From Amoebophrya sp. A120 (lineage: Eukaryota; Protista; Dinoflagellata), in the NCBI GenBank assembly GCA_905178155.1, contig CAJINV010000115.1, forward strand, positions 1 to 5,875: DNA of 5,875 bases, given 5' to 3'. Under the pieces are notes generated by a model. It worked only from the letters and a program-made list of their open reading frames with translations, made no database searches and was not told the origin of the DNA. The translations under genes were made by a program, and so were the position numbers. Shown piece by piece: positions 1 through 5,875 of the stretch (positions within the stretch are counted from its first letter, which is position 1; the number at the start of each line of letters is the position of its first letter).

Positions 1-150
1 ATTTCCAGTACGTTCACATTTTTTCTAGCACAACAACATCATCATCTTCTCTTTTTCCAGCTGCACCGGGGCTCACTGGGAAAGATAAGCATTTTCGGAC
101 TTCGAGGCGTTCTGCTGCACGTGCTATTTTTTGTCGGTTTTATCCAGGCG

Positions 151-180
151 TTTTATTGTTTTTTTATTTTATTTTTACTA
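151..180 (-). terminator. A-rich tract with three AATAAA hexamers downstream of ORF2 (possible polyadenylation signal)
   Basis: Plus-strand TTTATT at 152-157, 163-168 and 168-173, about 145-165 nt after the ORF2 stop. Confidence 0.4.
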
Positions 181-317
181 ATCATCGTCCTCCCAAGTGT
201 TTGTCATCGATGTCCTTCGTCGAGGTCGTTGTGCAAGAGCAAGACTTCTGCGTGTCTTCCATAACAAGGTCGAGGCATCGGAGTGCGCGGCGGCAGGAAC
301 CTGTTACTTCTGGACTG

Positions 318-3300
318 TTATGCACTAGTTTCTAACATTCTTTCATAAACTATTCTACCGTATGCAATTCCTTGTCTTTGCTGCTGGCTTGTGTTGCTTT
401 TTTCTGGAACCCCTTTCTTCTTCGGCAGGGCCATCGTGCGTATTTTTCTTCCGTCACATGTGGCTTTCATGCCGCAAAACTCTTCTTCTGCCGTCGTGTT
501 CTTCACATGGCAGCCGGGGTATATGTTCGCAAGGGGCTGGCGCTGGCTATTCTTCTTCGCTATTCGCACCCGAAGAATGTCATCAATGTATCTTTTGTAC
601 AGCAGCAAGCCAAGGATTGCACTACTACTTCTTTCATGTTTGTAGCCAAACACGTTACTGATTTCGACCATTGCAGGGGATCCCATTGGCCCGCCAGTAG
701 TTTGGCGGAGGATGTGTCCTAGACATCGGACATAGCAAAAGTTGATATCTAGCTGTAGCACCTCCTTCACAAAACTCGGCGTCATCCAGGTTATTCCCTT
801 GCCCGGTTTCTTCTTCAGGTACTGAAATCTCCTCTGCGGTTTTGGCTTTTCGATTCTGTACAGCTCCTCCATCCCTCCGCGCAGTCTTGGTCGGTCTCGG
901 TGAACATCTAGTCTTTCTCGGAGGATGTGGTCTGCTTCCATGGCGATGTATTTCACCCCCTTGTTCTCCAGGGAGCTAGTGAAACCTCCCAGGAAACTCG
1001 TCGAATCCGCTGTGTCGCAACGCGTGAAGAAATCTTTCAGGTCTCCCGTGTCCAGCTGTAGCTCCTCGTCTTGTTTCCCTGTCTCTGCGAAGTGTCGGTT
1101 GATTTTTTCAATTTCTTCCACTACTTGTCGCTGCGTATAAAAAGTTGTTCGTCTTGCCGTTGGTTCGATTATCCTTCTGGCTATTTTTGCTGCTGCTGAT
1201 AGAATTCGCTTGTAACAATGCCCGGCATATGATGTCAGCGGGCGGTAGGCTATCCCTTCATCGGGCCACGGAAGGAAGTCATCGCGTTGTAGTTTGTTGA
1301 TAAAACGTGCCTTGAACAGGATGCGCAGGAAGGGCAACCTGTGTCGCCTGCTGGCTCTCATCGAAGTTCCTCCATCCTTGTGCAAGCTGAAAAACTCGCC
1401 GGCTTCGTCTTTTCTCGTCAACCCGAACCACCCCGGCACCTTCTCGTACTCCTCGGTGTGTTTTTTCATCGTTCTCTGCATCAACCTGTTGCAAGAGAAG
1501 AAAAGCTGCTTCTCGGGGTCTTTGTCTACTTCGTCGCAGTACAGAATATTCGCTCTCGAAAAGGCCAGCAGGCTCGCGTCAATGTCGTCGACAGTAACTC
1601 GGTTATCTTGTACCCACGTCCAGTCTACTGATTTTTCGGCCGCCCATCTGTCTGCTCTCCCGTCTAGCTTTATTACCTTCGTCCCGATCGCTTTTTCTAG
1701 TTTCTTTCTGGCTGCTGCAAAGTGCCTCTCTGTTTCGTTTCTGTTCGGGTGGAACCTGCCGAGCTTGTTCCAGGTTGGGTCTTTTCCCGGTTTTAGCAGC
1801 GGCAGCGTTTTTGTTGAAAAGCACACATGTCCATCAACGAGGGGGGCATCTGGGTACAGTTCTTTGATCTTCTTGCAGTGACATGGTGCGTCTTGTCCTG
1901 TCTGCTCCCAGTAGGCCAATAGGCCATGCCAGTTTTTCAGCCGGGTTCGGAAAAAGTCATGCGTTCGGGCGCACTTTTTTCTCTTTATCCGGATGATGAC
2001 ATCTCCTTCTCCTGTTCCTTCATGTTTGTACCTCTGCGCCATCGTGCTGTAGATCGAGAGAAGCGGCCCGATTGCTTCTGGTGATGTGTCGAAGAGCTCG
2101 ACCGTGGCTATTCTTGCTGCTATTTTTTCGCCTCGTATGCATTTGAGGTGGTGCTGGAACATCAGGTATTTCCCATCGGCCAAAATCCGCCTCGCATATC
2201 TGTCCAGCGCGATCACCTGTCTAGTGTTGAGATTCGTGAGGGCGGTCTGAACGTGTCGGGGCGGCTCCTTTAGTCTCAGTGACAGCCTCGTAATGAGCTT
2301 CAGGAACTTGTAGCCAACCTCTTTCAGGTTCCTCGTCCTCAAAATCCGCGCCGCTTCCTTCGGAATTTTGTCGCTTGGGCTTCTGTGCTCTCCTCCTTCT
2401 CTTCTTCGTCTCGTCGAGCGGAATTCCTTGCAGGTTCTGGCGGTCATGATGATCGTTTTCCGAATTCCCCCGTACTTTTTGCCCTTGGCGCTCGCTTTTT
2501 TCTCCATCGTGTTCGCCGTTGCATTGAAATACCCGATCAACATCATCTCGGCCATTTTCAGCGGCGTGGACTCCACTATTCGCGCTCGCATCACTCTCAC
2601 GAACAAGTACTCAGCCAGCTCTTTTCGATGGAACGCGCACCCCCGTCCATCACGGTACTCGCTGATCTTCTCGGACCAGTGGCACTTCCATCTGGTCTTC
2701 TTGTGCTGAATGGTTTGTCCGATGTAAGTCGACCGCGTTCCCGGACGCCAGGCGAGGTAGATAACTCCCTCCTCGTTTTCTCCTTCTTCCCGTTCGTCTT
2801 CGTTTGCCGCGCAACAAATCTCCAGTTTGTTTCGTAGGGTCCTGCAGAAATGTGTGTCGCTTTTGTCCAGGAACGCCCTGGCGATCCATTGGTCAAGGCT
2901 GAAAAGAGAATCTCTCAACACTGGCAAGAAGTGTCGCCCTCCTATTCTCGGCGCTGGTAGTGGTCTGCTGTCTCTGCATTGTTCTGCCCAAGGCTCGGGC
3001 AGGTTCTCGGCTTGGAATCTGTTGGTGGAGTAGGTTACTTGTTTTGCTCTTTTGTCATAGTCGAAGGTGACTACGCAGCTGCATCGGTTTGTTTGTCTGC
3101 AATAGTTACACTGCCCCCGTGGCGCTGCTGTTCGTGCAAAAGCGTAGCTTTTCATTGCTACTATAAGTTGTTGAGTGGTCGCGCACATGTTGTCGGTGTA
3201 CGTGTGCGGGCCTCTTCTTACTAGATCTCGGATTTTGTTGCGGATAAGGTGCAAAACGTTTATCCACGTGCGTGTGCCTACTCTCAGCGAGAGTGGGTAA

Positions 3301-3332
3301 AGCGGTACTGTTCTGTTAGTTCTCATCATCAT
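318..3332 (-). CDS. ORF2: GIY-YIG endonuclease / reverse transcriptase polyprotein (PLE-type, Naiad/Chlamys-like architecture), 1004 aa
   Basis: Uninterrupted ORF starting ATGATGATG and ending TAA. Motifs: GVIY(189-192), YIGQT(203-207), R214, H218, E262, N274; PCHC..GHVC(483-504); DK(603-604); LPFLRILFK(666-674); RPLTS(697-701); DLKDFFT(764-770); QTTGGPMGSP(877-886); RYIDD(914-918); EFCGM(951-955). Confidence 0.92.
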   Translation of the reverse strand: MMMRTNRTVPLYPLSLRVGTRTWINVLHLIRNKIRDLVRRGPHTYTDNMCATTQQLIVAMKSYAFARTAAPRGQCNYCRQTNRCSCVVTFDYDKRAKQVTYSTNRFQAENLPEPWAEQCRDSRPLPAPRIGGRHFLPVLRDSLFSLDQWIARAFLDKSDTHFCRTLRNKLEICCAANEDEREEGENEEGVIYLAWRPGTRSTYIGQTIQHKKTRWKCHWSEKISEYRDGRGCAFHRKELAEYLFVRVMRARIVESTPLKMAEMMLIGYFNATANTMEKKASAKGKKYGGIRKTIIMTARTCKEFRSTRRRREGGEHRSPSDKIPKEAARILRTRNLKEVGYKFLKLITRLSLRLKEPPRHVQTALTNLNTRQVIALDRYARRILADGKYLMFQHHLKCIRGEKIAARIATVELFDTSPEAIGPLLSIYSTMAQRYKHEGTGEGDVIIRIKRKKCARTHDFFRTRLKNWHGLLAYWEQTGQDAPCHCKKIKELYPDAPLVDGHVCFSTKTLPLLKPGKDPTWNKLGRFHPNRNETERHFAAARKKLEKAIGTKVIKLDGRADRWAAEKSVDWTWVQDNRVTVDDIDASLLAFSRANILYCDEVDKDPEKQLFFSCNRLMQRTMKKHTEEYEKVPGWFGLTRKDEAGEFFSLHKDGGTSMRASRRHRLPFLRILFKARFINKLQRDDFLPWPDEGIAYRPLTSYAGHCYKRILSAAAKIARRIIEPTARRTTFYTQRQVVEEIEKINRHFAETGKQDEELQLDTGDLKDFFTRCDTADSTSFLGGFTSSLENKGVKYIAMEADHILRERLDVHRDRPRLRGGMEELYRIEKPKPQRRFQYLKKKPGKGITWMTPSFVKEVLQLDINFCYVRCLGHILRQTTGGPMGSPAMVEISNVFGYKHERSSSAILGLLLYKRYIDDILRVRIAKKNSQRQPLANIYPGCHVKNTTAEEEFCGMKATCDGRKIRTMALPKKKGVPEKSNTSQQQRQGIAYGRIVYERMLETSA
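468..1526 (-). other. Reverse transcriptase core of ORF2 (aa 603-955)
   Basis: Catalytic aspartates D764 (nt 1041-1043) and YIDD (nt 579-590), motif B QxxGxPMGSP starting at nt 704, finger motifs P..IxxK and RPLTS, and the PLE-type DK motif at nt 1521-1526. Confidence 0.92.
1821..1886 (-). other. Zinc-knuckle-like motif PCHC-x14-GHVC in the EN-RT linker
   Basis: Translation PCHCKKIKELYPDAPLVDGHVC (aa 483-504). As I recall, a CxC..GH motif at this position is characteristic of PLEs with N-terminal EN. Confidence 0.65.
2511..2768 (-). other. GIY-YIG endonuclease domain of ORF2 (aa 189-274)
   Basis: GVIYLAWRPGTRSTYIGQTIQHKKTRWKCH...AEMMLI...ATAN carries the GIY and YIG motifs, the downstream Arg and His, the metal-binding Glu and the terminal Asn, in the order expected for the superfamily. 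Confidence 0.9.
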
Positions 3333-3345
3333 ATTTCTTCAATTC

Positions 3346-3362
3346 AAACAAGTGGGCGAGAA
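3346..3362. repeat. 17-bp inverted repeat, arm in the ORF1-ORF2 spacer (AAACAAGTGGGCGAGAA)
   Basis: Exact reverse complement of 5594-5610; lies 13 nt upstream of the ORF2 ATG. Confidence 0.95.
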
Positions 3363-3385
3363 GTCGTCGTTGTTATTGCTGCCAA

Positions 3386-3394
3386 AATGGCGCT
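3386..3394. repeat. 9-bp inverted repeat arm (AATGGCGCT), complementary to the ORF1 start-codon region 5578-5586
   Basis: 5578-5586 reads AGCGCCATT, the exact reverse complement. The pair is nested co-linearly inside the 17-bp pair. Confidence 0.85.
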
Positions 3395-3439
3395 CGATGT
3401 AGATCTGTTGTGCACGTGCGAAGCGGATTACTGCTGCTG

Positions 3440-3495
3440 TTTTTTGTTTTTTTAAAAAATTTTTTACTTTTTATTATTTTTGCTTTTTTAATATT
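3440..3495 (-). promoter_or_regulatory. A-rich tract in the inter-ORF spacer containing AATAAA (possible polyadenylation signal or internal promoter element)
   Basis: The minus strand is almost pure A/T from about 27 nt after the ORF1 stop. AATAAA is at 3470-3475 and AAAAAGTAAAAA at 3461-3472. Confidence 0.35.
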
Positions 3496-3521
3496 GCCAG
3501 AACCAGAACTGCACTACTGTG

Positions 3522-5585
3522 CTACTCCTCCCACTTCCCGTTCATCCATGCGTCCCATTCTTCTTTCGAGTACTCTTTGTTCCAGTCATTCGCATTCTCC
3601 TCTTTTCCCGTTTTGTTGGAGTTGATGTTCCCACTGCTGTTGCTGGTGTTGCTGCTGCTTGTTTTGTTGTTCCCACTGCTGTTGCTGTTGCTGCTGCTGC
3701 TCGTCCTGTTGTTTGTTTCCTGTTCCACTTCATCCTCGTACTCCCAGGTCTTGTTGCAGTTCAGGGCGTTCTTGCTGCTGTTCGATTTATTGTTCTTAGC
3801 TTTTTCCAAATTCCCGTCGTCATTCGGTACCAAATCGCCCACATCCAGTTCATCGTCGTCAAACTGCTGTTCCAAAAAATCCACATCCACCTCGTCATCT
3901 GAATCCAGGTTAATAATCTCGTCCTCTTCTGCGTAGTTCCCGAAATTGCCGATGGAGTGTTTTTCCGCGAGGTCTGCGTCATCTCCGTCGTCGATCTGCA
4001 TCTTGCTGGCTTTTTCGACCTTGATGCTGTAGTCGAGAATCTCCATCACCCTGATAGCCAACCCGATTCTGCCAAAGCTCTGCTTCTCTACCCAGACTGC
4101 TCCTTCGTCCGTGTCCTTCACAAAGCTGTACGATTCTGCTCCAAGGAGCATGAAGTGCTTGCGGAAGTCTTCGTGCCAAAAACACTTTTGGTAGAGACCG
4201 GTTTTATCTCCAGTGAGCGTAGACTGCACCGAAGCCTGCAACGACCCCACATTGATCTCCGGCAAGATCTTCCCCGCTTCCTTCACCTTTTTTGTGACGC
4301 TCCGCATCATGTACTTGGCGAAAGTTTCCGGCTTCTTCATGTGCTTGGGCTTCCACATGTCAAAAGAGGTCTTTGCGGCATGTGCTCCGGTTTTCACTCC
4401 TACATCCGAAAGCTTCTGGCTGCTCTCTTCTTCAAGGCATTTCCAGGTTTCTGCTGCTGCTTCCCACTCGTCTTCCAGGTAAGCTTCCCAGTTGAAGTTG
4501 ACAAATTCCTTTTTCTCTGCTTTTTTGGCGTTCTCCGTACTCCGCTCCGCAGCTTCTTCCGCAGGGGTTTTTGGCAGTGGTGGTAGCACGGGGGTGTCCT
4601 GCAGTTTCAGCTTTCTCTTCTTGCCCTCGGCCTGGTCTTCCTCCGCGTGCTCGTGTTCTTCTTCGCCGTCCTTCTCTGCTACTGTTTCGCCCTGTTCTTT
4701 CTCATTCGGTCGCGGTCGCAAGTTCAAGGCTCTGGTGGAGGGTTGAATAATTTCTGGCGGCACCTCTAAAACCGTCGAGGCCATCTCAACGTCTTTGTTT
4801 CCCTTATTCTTCCCACCTTCTTTCCCCGCGCCCTTTCCCTTCCCGTCTTTCTTCGTCGGCAAAGCCACAGCGTCGCGGCGCACGAGCTGTTTCCCTTTTC
4901 CTCCTTTGCTCGTAGTCCCGGCTTCTTCTCCCTTCTTGCTGAACTGTACGCGCTGGAGCTCCTCGATCTTCTTGTTCTGGTTCTTGATCAAGTCCACTAA
5001 TTCCTTCGGGATCCCAGCGGGCTCCTTGCTGCTACTGCTAGTAGTCGGAGCGACTTCTTCCGTTTCCTGCGGCGGCCCATCAACACACTTTTCCCAGTCG
5101 ATTTTGTCATACCAATCCGGTTCCGGCCCGACAATTTTCGAGAAGGCGCGGCTGCTGATGGTACTCATGGCGCTGAGCATCTTCCTCTGGTCTTCTTCTT
5201 TTACCATATCCAGTTTCGCTACCAGTGCCGCGACATGTCCTACAGCGAATCTGGGTACTGGTAGTGGGCAATATTTCGGGATTGTTAGCTCGGGGTAGGC
5301 TGGGTCCAGGATCTTCAGGGTGTTCATCATTTCGCGCGGGACTTTTCCCAGGAGGCTGACGTCTCTGGTGCTCCGTCCTTCTGCAATCGGATAATAGGTA
5401 AGCTTTCCGAAAAACTTCTCTTCCGAAACTGCTTCCACGGCGTCGTTGTTCCATCCCCCGGGCGGTTGCTCATTGTACTGGAACTGGTTGTATCCGCCTC
5501 CTTTTCCACCAAAATAGTTCTTTCCTCCTCCGTATCCTTTACCGGCTCCACTGTCTGCCGGCGGTCTTCGATTTGCCAGCGCCAT
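3522..5585 (-). CDS. ORF1: hypothetical protein of 687 aa (701 aa if the TTG at 5627 is used), largely disordered; possible RNA-binding/RNP chaperone
   Basis: Long open frame whose first in-frame ATG (5585) is in strong context (ATAATGG). It has a Gly/Tyr/Lys-rich N-terminus, a short heptad-like stretch (ELVDLIKNQNKKIEELQR), GK-rich and KKRKLK basic patches, Asp/Glu tracts, an Asn/Ser repeat and a Trp-rich acidic tail. No known domain was recognised, so the function is inferred. Confidence 0.85.
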   Translation of the reverse strand: MALANRRPPADSGAGKGYGGGKNYFGGKGGGYNQFQYNEQPPGGWNNDAVEAVSEEKFFGKLTYYPIAEGRSTRDVSLLGKVPREMMNTLKILDPAYPELTIPKYCPLPVPRFAVGHVAALVAKLDMVKEEDQRKMLSAMSTISSRAFSKIVGPEPDWYDKIDWEKCVDGPPQETEEVAPTTSSSSKEPAGIPKELVDLIKNQNKKIEELQRVQFSKKGEEAGTTSKGGKGKQLVRRDAVALPTKKDGKGKGAGKEGGKNKGNKDVEMASTVLEVPPEIIQPSTRALNLRPRPNEKEQGETVAEKDGEEEHEHAEEDQAEGKKRKLKLQDTPVLPPLPKTPAEEAAERSTENAKKAEKKEFVNFNWEAYLEDEWEAAAETWKCLEEESSQKLSDVGVKTGAHAAKTSFDMWKPKHMKKPETFAKYMMRSVTKKVKEAGKILPEINVGSLQASVQSTLTGDKTGLYQKCFWHEDFRKHFMLLGAESYSFVKDTDEGAVWVEKQSFGRIGLAIRVMEILDYSIKVEKASKMQIDDGDDADLAEKHSIGNFGNYAEEDEIINLDSDDEVDVDFLEQQFDDDELDVGDLVPNDDGNLEKAKNNKSNSSKNALNCNKTWEYEDEVEQETNNRTSSSSNSNSSGNNKTSSSNTSNSSGNINSNKTGKEENANDWNKEYSKEEWDAWMNGKWEE
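3621..3704 (-). repeat. Imperfect 2 x 42-bp tandem repeat in ORF1 (TSSSSNSNSSGNNK / TSSSNTSNSSGNIN)
   Basis: The 20-mer TGTTCCCACTGCTGTTGCTG occurs at 3626-3645 and 3668-3687, a period of 42, within AAC/AGC-rich low-complexity coding sequence. Confidence 0.85.
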
Positions 5586-5593
5586 TATTTGTT

Positions 5594-5610
5594 TTCTCGC
5601 CCACTTGTTT
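5594..5610. repeat. 17-bp inverted repeat, arm in the ORF1 leader (TTCTCGCCCACTTGTTT)
   Basis: Exact reverse complement of 3346-3362. Confidence 0.95.
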
Positions 5611-5617
5611 TGATGAT

Positions 5618-5635
5618 TTAGTTCCAAAATTGCAT
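5618..5635 (-). promoter_or_regulatory. Short upstream ORF MQFWN*
   Basis: ATG CAA TTT TGG AAC TAA on the minus strand, in weak context (CGCATGC). It is the only AUG between the TATA-like motif (5730) and the ORF1 ATG. The sequence is certain; its translation is inferred. Confidence 0.5.
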
Positions 5636-5704
5636 GCGTTTATGTAAAATATAGTGAGCAGTTTAAGGCGTAATAAGTTTACGATTTTCTATGGTGTTAA
5701 TCAG

Positions 5705-5732
5705 TTTTTATTTCTTTTTACTTTTTTATAAA
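5705..5732 (-). promoter_or_regulatory. A-rich tract with a TATA-like motif upstream of ORF1
   Basis: The minus strand reads TATAAAAAAGTAAAAAGAAATAAAAA from 5730, about 145 nt upstream of ATG 5585. TTTATAAA (5725-5732) is palindromic, and AATAAA is at 5707-5712. Promoter function is inferred only. Confidence 0.35.
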
Positions 5733-5875
5733 GATCAGAGATTTTAGATATTACCCGCAAAGCTAAAATATCTAGGCAAATTCCGGAGACAGTTTGATCT
5801 CACTAAAGCGACGAAGTGTAAAGACGAACGAAGTTTTCCAAACGTAAAGAAGTGCTAGAACATCGGGAAAGTCCA

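Follow-up and report, generated by a model that had tools for sequence, protein, structure and literature searches.

A probable Chlamys-type Penelope-like element with a large upstream open reading frame and a probable alveolate host

Penelope-like elements (PLEs) encode reverse transcriptases (RTs) that form the sister group of telomerase, and the branch of PLEs in which the nuclease precedes the RT is thinly sampled. Contig CAJINV010000115.1, analyzed here at positions 1–5,875 (the window), carries two large open reading frames (ORFs) on its minus strand, ORF1 and, downstream of it, ORF2. A preliminary description regarded them as one PLE with an N-terminal GIY-YIG endonuclease (EN). Do the two ORFs make up a single mobile element, to which class does it belong, and is anything about it new? 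We find that the window most likely contains the full body of an autonomous Chlamys-type PLE, a class assigned from motifs compared by eye and from the predicted fold rather than from a phylogeny that includes the reference clades. In all likelihood, ORF1 is part of the element.

Domain organization of ORF2

The description of an EN–linker–RT frame preceded by a co-oriented frame of 687 residues held up: both ORFs are real and unbroken, and ORF1 lies 189 nt upstream of ORF2 on the same strand (Table 1). The nuclease indeed stands in front of a divergent RT, as a PLE of this kind would have it, with the GIY-YIG domain at residues 190–275 and the RT core at residues 664–970. Within the nuclease, VIY...YIG at residues 190–205 is followed by R214, H218, E262 and N274 (numbers read from the sequence), and these four residues are aligned across relatives. 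In the predicted model the domain has the beta-beta-alpha-beta-alpha order. Neither a CCHH nor a CX2-5CxxC finger is present at the nuclease. A different cysteine motif, a predicted zinc site, precedes it; the pattern CxxC-x5-6-CxC recurs before the nuclease in five of the six relatives that have at least 100 residues ahead of GIY, one with a longer spacer, and is missing from relative P0026.

The RT has LFKARF (residue 672) at the usual PKxHK position, as well as GGPMG (residue 880), both as first described, and YIDD at residue 915. RT1 is changed throughout the family, which has H-x-(W/L)-x-F-L...K-x-K-x-F instead, with K674 invariant in 16 of 16 rows. Motif A is separated from motif B (GGPMG) by 116 residues, a spacing of IFD size. 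Upstream of the core, ORF2 reads CHC...LVDGHV at residues 484–503, WNKLGRF at residue 521 and VDKD at residue 602; the CxC motif was found in all homologues covering that region of the alignment, and DK is common across the alignment.

A structural model of ORF2 built from a 16-sequence alignment reached a mean pLDDT of 67.5 (34 for a single-sequence model of the RT). The top 15 Foldseek rows obtained with this model were all telomerase RTs, as were the top 16 rows in VIA (Z 13.0–19.0, root-mean-square deviation of about 4 Å, 320–417 aligned residues), group II intron RTs coming next at Z 12.8; in a viral structure library, nothing matched at E ≤ 0.001. At the sequence level, Pfam returned no match for the whole ORF1 and ORF2 proteins and a PDB sequence search none for the whole ORF2, while a profile of 21 family sequences matched reverse transcriptases in the PDB with a best E of 2.7e-7. 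The structural alignments with TERT start near model residue 454, as read from output giving only the first and last aligned residues. Judging from the model, the ORF2 linker probably corresponds to what we take to be the telomerase RNA-binding domain, beginning at about this residue.

The protein ends soon after YIDD. Among 14 distinct relatives, the distance from YxDD to the end is 91–106 residues in five and 118–206 residues in seven, and two are cut short. Because five of the 14 end 91–106 residues after YxDD, the short thumb is, on sequence comparison, a shared feature and not a lesion. An extension of the thumb through a frameshift or a tiny intron was considered and rejected, since the downstream frames lack the GY helix of the long-thumbed relatives and five relatives end similarly.

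Table 1. Features of the element in the window
Feature	Position	Strand	Remarks
ORF2, EN–RT polyprotein	318–3332	−	1004 aa; no internal stops (standard code)
GIY-YIG endonuclease	2508–2765	−	aa 190–275; R, H, E, N; no Cys between GIY and YIG
CxxC-x5-CxC motif	3075–3110	−	aa 75–86; predicted zinc site; ~100 aa before nuclease
CxC...GHV, GxKF/Y-like and DK motifs	1518–1883	−	aa 484–503, 521–527, 603–604; telomerase RNA-binding domain-like region (predicted)
RT core	423–1343	−	aa 664–970; D764, GGPMG, YIDD
Short thumb	321–407	−	protein end 86 aa past YIDD
ORF1	3522–5585	−	687 aa; no internal stops (standard code)
42-nt tandem repeat	3622–3713	.	2.2 copies; codes for the S/N-rich tail of ORF1
Inter-ORF gap	3333–3521	−	189 nt; A-rich tract; AATAAA (3475); GCACGTGC (3412–3419)
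17-nt inverted-repeat arm	5594–5610	−	8 nt upstream of ORF1 ATG
17-nt inverted-repeat arm	3346–3362	−	13 nt upstream of ORF2 ATG
3′ untranslated part, single-copy	96–317	−	A-rich tract; AATAAA (173, 157); GCACGTGC (117–124)
Multicopy end	5781–5875	−	putative 3′ end of upstream direct repeat (pseudo-LTR), by analogy with L001
Multicopy end	1–95	−	putative start of downstream direct repeat

Relationship to known elements

ORF2 has the general hallmarks of PLEs, namely an RT whose predicted model is nearest to telomerase RT and the DK and GxKF/Y-like motifs. Within PLEs, Chlamys has been defined by an N-terminal GIY-YIG nuclease without the CCHH and CX2-5CxxC linker, together with CxC and DK motifs and a long IFD (PMC8557442, Craig et al. 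2021). Compared by eye with the published alignments, including Fig. S4, ORF2 shows all of these features, and its A-to-B spacing, which exceeds that of canonical PLEs, falls among the values shown for Chlamys in Fig. S1 (PMC8557442). An upstream ORF occurs in Chlamys-2_cBra, Chlamys-5_cBra and Chlamys-1_bBra (PMC8557442). Because three published Chlamys families carry one, the two-ORF nuclease-first layout is not new. The earlier suggestion that a permuted, nuclease-bearing PLE with a large upstream ORF might be undescribed thus survives for the lineage, which is likely undescribed, but not for the layout.

The present element has features of its own. Compared with the two-ORF Chlamys families, its ORF1 is distinguished by a length of 687 residues and the lack of a zinc knuckle. 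Its cysteine motif about 100 residues before the nuclease is not visible in the five printed Chlamys N-termini (PMC8557442). It further differs from Chlamys in the altered RT1, the short thumb, the probable alveolate host, a 17-nt complement joining the two leaders, and the two extra small ORFs in a distant relative, L001, which is described below together with a second locus, L002. A canonical hammerhead is usually absent from Chlamys; likewise, no Rfam ribozyme was detected in the window, whose repeats lie mostly outside the sequence, or in L001 and L002. Only one stretch of the window, within ORF1, resembles a hammerhead core, and an Rfam row for CrcZ (E 0.62) was dismissed as an A-rich chance match.

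Other classes fit less well. Naiad elements share the domain order, CxC, DK and IFD, but they have CCHH and CX2-5CxxC nuclease fingers, which are absent here, a single ORF and animal hosts (PMC8557442). Hydra, previously listed among the clades with permuted order, actually has a C-terminal nuclease; with no CxC, no IFD and a hammerhead, it does not match (PMC8557442). Athena/Terminon and Coprina elements are similar in that their telomerase-like RT is preceded by an ORF1 whose product is mostly disordered (PMC8557442, PMC13159263), and a two-ORF Coprina has been described (PMC13159263). They differ in the lack of a fused nuclease, and their telomere attachment, hammerheads and telomeric-repeat stretches were not found in the window, where neither TTAGGG nor TTTAGGG occurs. 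As for LTR (long terminal repeat) retrotransposons, which are characterized by TG...CA ends, protease, RNase H and integrase, no such Pfam family was detected in the window's element or in L001.

Searching 1.84 billion representatives with ORF2 produced 28 hits, three of which are 100% identical pieces of the query. The three best non-self relatives are Amoebophrya proteins with 30–34% identity (20 of the 25 non-self hits were looked up, and four are organism-named), and the weakest organism-named hit is a Physarum protein (E 7.6e-4). These proteins suggest that the lineage probably lives in Amoebophrya-like parasitic dinoflagellates. No relative was detected in viral contigs, prokaryote genomes, plasmids or a first metagenome scan. 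Word-seeded protein searches with ORF2, ORF1 and the 16-sequence alignment also found none, a result of little weight, as they missed relatives found otherwise. Our literature search found no description of an alveolate PLE. Neither 'Penelope' nor 'PLE' occurs in the main text of PMC7789003, on Amoebophrya, and the Chlamys elements of Ectocarpus are stated to be the first PLEs reported from the TSAR supergroup (PMC12477816, 2025).

Boundaries of the insertion

What delimits the element? In run X1, which may derive from the same source as the window, the body of the window has a depth of 45, whereas positions 1–95 and 5798–5875 reach 94.9 and 127, respectively. The multicopy stretch amounts to 95 nt at each window end, the body is single-depth, and only the end modules are multicopy in this run. 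Such ends are what a contig that breaks off in repeats would be expected to have. At the right end, near-identical copies reach to 5778–5781 and have three different neighbors, the window's own and two others. In run X3, pieces of both ORFs occur at depth 2–5 and two end-bearing contigs at 39–44, depths consistent with a body that is there in full or missing altogether, the nature of the run being a guess. In X4 and X5, two runs of sample S3, there are contigs containing 5798–5875 followed by 56–105, in direct order. Should the 1406-nt X4 contig, whose depth is equal, carry this joint, the window's repeat would be at most about 1.15 kb, like that of L001. The unit is probably bounded by direct repeats at the window ends, probably collapsed.

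The end modules show some further variation. In X1, a diverged copy of the right end (window 5785–5866, 7 differences in 82 nt) is flanked differently on either side; its variant letters are also seen in X3. Elsewhere, the module at 55–105 continues behind position 95 as a tandem variant in X1, X3 and X7, and in X4 and X5 ACCCTAAAAAAAA comes after it. Read on the sense strand, ACCCTAAAAAAAA amounts to a T-run plus AGGG, like one telomeric unit; in L001, the downstream repeat is directly preceded by TTTTTTAGGG. A 14-nt stretch with one mismatch is common to the sequence behind 105 in X4/X5 and one of the flanks before 5778, perhaps reflecting a repeated target locus.

A metagenome scan yielded the two loci, L001 and L002, from seven pattern matches. 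L001 is a complete insertion of a distant relative with 24% identity. It is bounded by direct repeats of 971 nt (3180–4150 and 12577–13548) that are 99% alike. The 7-nt target duplication TTCAAAT stands outside each of them, and a tail, which measures 30–40 nt in PLEs, is absent. Its target is not a microsatellite; Chlamys has an insertion bias for (CA)n or (C)n, and several published Chlamys elements list no preference (PMC8557442). The repeats start with GCG and end near TAGG(TT), without TG...CA ends, and the L001 ORFs match no integrase, protease or RNase H family in Pfam. The two repeats, of about 971 nt, differ by eight substitutions, every one a transition located within the first 282 nt; the other 690 nt are identical except for one T-run indel. 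This distribution suggests that the upstream repeat is a mosaic of templates, and it fits two templates better than ageing LTRs.

Between the repeats, L001 has ORFs of 133, 235, 774 and 1132 residues. The 774-residue ORF lies 245 nt before the 1132-residue EN–RT and has a G/K/Y-rich head similar to that of ORF1. The two small ORFs (4503–5611) overlap by one base upstream of L001 ORF1 and have no convincing Pfam match. In L002, a frameshift near 760–850 interrupts the RT ORF; downstream of the RT there are a 32-nt imperfect inverted repeat with arms 243 nt apart (3004–3310) and an array of 128–184 nt tandem units (5522–7466).

Nature of ORF1

ORF1 has a G/K/Y-rich head, charged low-complexity stretches and an acidic, S/N-rich tail. 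Neither Pfam, nor protein searches, nor the Atlas queried with the whole ORF1 revealed a family or a homologue. The proposed resemblance to LINE ORF1 was not confirmed, no detectable likeness being found. For residues 345–535 (window 3900–4550), the nearest Atlas clusters correspond to DUF6532 (PF20149) of Basidiomycota with a score of 0.88, a weak lead only. Based on position and composition, ORF1 may be an accessory RNA-binding or RNA-packaging protein.

Its membership in the element, claimed from the outset, is backed by the like-sized ORF at the same place inside the L001 repeats. The preliminary description would have been wrong on this point if ORF1 were a host gene that other RT copies lack; at L001, the sole informative locus, this is not the case. 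Sequence comparison of the N-terminal parts of ORF1 and the L001 ORF gave a likeness equalled in 1 of 2000 shuffles for windows chosen after inspection; without the head, the figure was 26 of 2000, with control scores of 28–35 against 38. Homology of the two is not established: the position of ORF1 is shared, while sequence and helix are not shown to be shared.

The gap between the ORFs is in frame with both of them. Readthrough from ORF1 into ORF2 was nevertheless rejected because of four in-frame stops, including that of ORF1. The palindrome GCACGTGC occurs twice in the window, both times in non-coding sequence downstream of an A-rich tract; any GC-rich 8-mer palindrome was repeated in 2 of 2000 shuffles. 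It is also found once in L001 (5958–5965), about 200 nt before L001 ORF1, and may be a promoter element.

An inverted repeat joining the two leaders

Inverted repeats had been thought to link the ORFs into one unit. Among the ten inverted pairs in the window, a single one is perfect and long (17 nt), so the pair does exist, but it brackets ORF1 alone and is not terminal. The duplex of the two arms has an estimated energy of −32.3 kcal/mol. A perfect inverted repeat of at least 17 nt anywhere arose in 15 of 1000 dinucleotide shuffles of the window, and a complement of at least 12 nt between the leaders in 72 of 20000 shuffles of one leader. The repeat is probably real and not due to chance. None of eight terminal or leader stretches folds better than its shuffles.

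An inverted pair enclosing a segment recalls the Amoebophrya introners, which have terminal inverted repeats (TIRs) of 8–20 nt and direct repeats of 3–5 nt (PMC7789003), and one ORF-bearing introner family has its ORFs between the TIRs (PMC12130899). In contrast to introners, the ORF1 cassette has no adjoining direct repeat, is about 10 times longer, is coding, and has no second copy seen. Two raw RNA runs, X8 and X9, gave no reads on the window, which says nothing for or against splicing.

Evaluation of the interpretation

A number of observations weigh against an autonomous two-ORF Chlamys-type element. As to its class, the isolated ORF2 nuclease matches Pfam PF01541 with E 0.016, below the curated cut-off (the nuclease domains of two relatives, with E 0.003 and 0.0007, are also below it), and residues 1–141 and 209–239 are modeled with low confidence. 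The Chlamys assignment relies on motifs and the predicted fold rather than on an RT tree against Naiad, Chlamys and other reference clades. A tree of 19 homologues, built from the 21 aligned rows minus P0004, which has 142 residues in this region, and P0012, whose RT is that of P0031, is largely unresolved, with 10 of 16 inner branches open and no supported Amoebophrya clade, and the host is suggested solely by the 30–34% identical proteins. As to the unit, the window's own repeats and target site lie outside the sequence, so that the role of the repeats is proposed from the multicopy ends and by analogy with L001. Run X1 shows no second copy of the body at 85% likeness, no independent insertions and no truncated body copies, although 5′-truncated copies are frequent in PLEs. 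Since the X4/X5 contigs match 56–105 and not 1–55, they represent a related locus. As to ORF1, L001 is the sole relative locus reaching upstream of the nuclease, L002 being cut upstream of the RT. There, ORF1 and the 774-residue ORF give a BLASTP E of 0.081, their full-length likeness was equalled in 15 of 300 shuffles and that of the N-terminal parts in 201 of 2000 when local composition was kept, the C-terminal folded part gives no signal, and the L001 leaders have no complement longer than 9 nt. The co-orientation of ORF1 and ORF2 says little, because 83–98% of Amoebophrya genes lie within co-oriented blocks (PMC7789003), and AATAAA together with the possible promoter motif GCACGTGC in the gap fits two separate transcripts.

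These points could be taken to mean that ORF2 forms a Chlamys-type element by itself and that ORF1 is unrelated to it, being either a host gene without introns or cargo picked up by chance. Genes in Amoebophrya are co-oriented as a rule (PMC7789003), signals that could end one transcript and start another stand between the ORFs, and no ORF1 homologue has been established. We nevertheless consider this quite unlikely: both ORFs lie in a single stretch that has single depth and is bounded by repeats, their depths fall together in X3, an ORF of similar size occupies the same place within the repeats and target duplication of L001, and the 17-nt complement ties both leaders. The arms enclose ORF1 exactly, which raises another possibility, namely that ORF1 and its arms make up a mobile cassette in its own right (a TIR element or a coding introner) that entered the 5′ leader of the PLE and is spliced as a non-canonical intron. 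The inverted ends of Amoebophrya introners (PMC7789003) and the introner family with ORFs between its TIRs (PMC12130899) would agree with this. Yet the arms are flanked by ATCA and GAAT rather than by a direct repeat of 3–5 nt, the segment measures 2265 nt against an average of 120–240 nt for non-canonical introns (PMC7789003), it is of single depth without a second copy in X1, no transposase match was found, and the upstream ORF of L001 has no such arms. This explanation appears very unlikely indeed.

It is also very unlikely, in our view, that the RT represents a separate deep clade of telomerase-related retroelements that merely resembles Chlamys and has true LTR-like repeats. The CxC–GHV, GxKF/Y-like and DK motifs, the IFD and the CCHH-less nuclease are Chlamys diagnostics (PMC8557442), a Physarum protein is among the hits, the L001 repeats lack TG...CA ends, and no integrase, protease or RNase H family was detected in the ORFs between them. 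What speaks for such a clade is that Pfam does not recognize the RT, that RT1 is replaced, the thumb short and the upstream cysteine motif not a Chlamys feature, and that L001 has co-terminal repeats and a clean duplication without a tail. A more far-reaching proposal would combine several of these elements: a deep alveolate-centred clade of multi-ORF nuclease-first PLEs, with its own zinc finger and clipped thumb and a repeat–body–repeat insertion with clean target duplication, whose RT is expressed here by removing the whole of ORF1 as an inverted-repeat-bounded, introner-style non-canonical intron, thereby co-opting Amoebophrya's unexplained splicing route. We regard it as unlikely. The autonomous Chlamys-type PLE, with ORF1 as its part, therefore remains our preferred reading.

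A possible mode of transposition

Tandem pseudo-LTRs (pLTRs), target-primed reverse transcription and variable target duplications all have precedents in PLEs (PMC8557442, PMC11167929, PMC9977147). For the autonomous two-ORF element, the transcript would begin in the upstream direct repeat, cover both ORFs and extend into the downstream one. ORF2 would bind the element RNA via its telomerase-like RNA-binding region, and ORF1 might serve as an RNA-packaging partner. The GIY-YIG domain would nick the target DNA, and ORF2 would reverse-transcribe from the freed 3′-OH. A template jump onto a second RNA would then produce a partial tandem copy, the upstream repeat, and a staggered second nick the short target duplication. 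In the least supported step, the 17-nt arms would pair in the RNA, loop out ORF1 and bring the 5′ leader to the ORF2 start, by ribosome shunting or splicing.

Implications

An intact member of this group that Pfam misses would widen the range of PLEs to include alveolates and contribute a family that has motifs of its own. The leader-to-leader helix bears on the expression of a second ORF in a host with non-canonical introns. An in vitro PLE system has been named as a next task (PMC8557442), and the one in PMC11167929 uses a nuclease-last element. The full-length open EN–RT offers material for studying how pLTRs form, a process of which the mosaic repeat pair of L001 may be a genomic trace.

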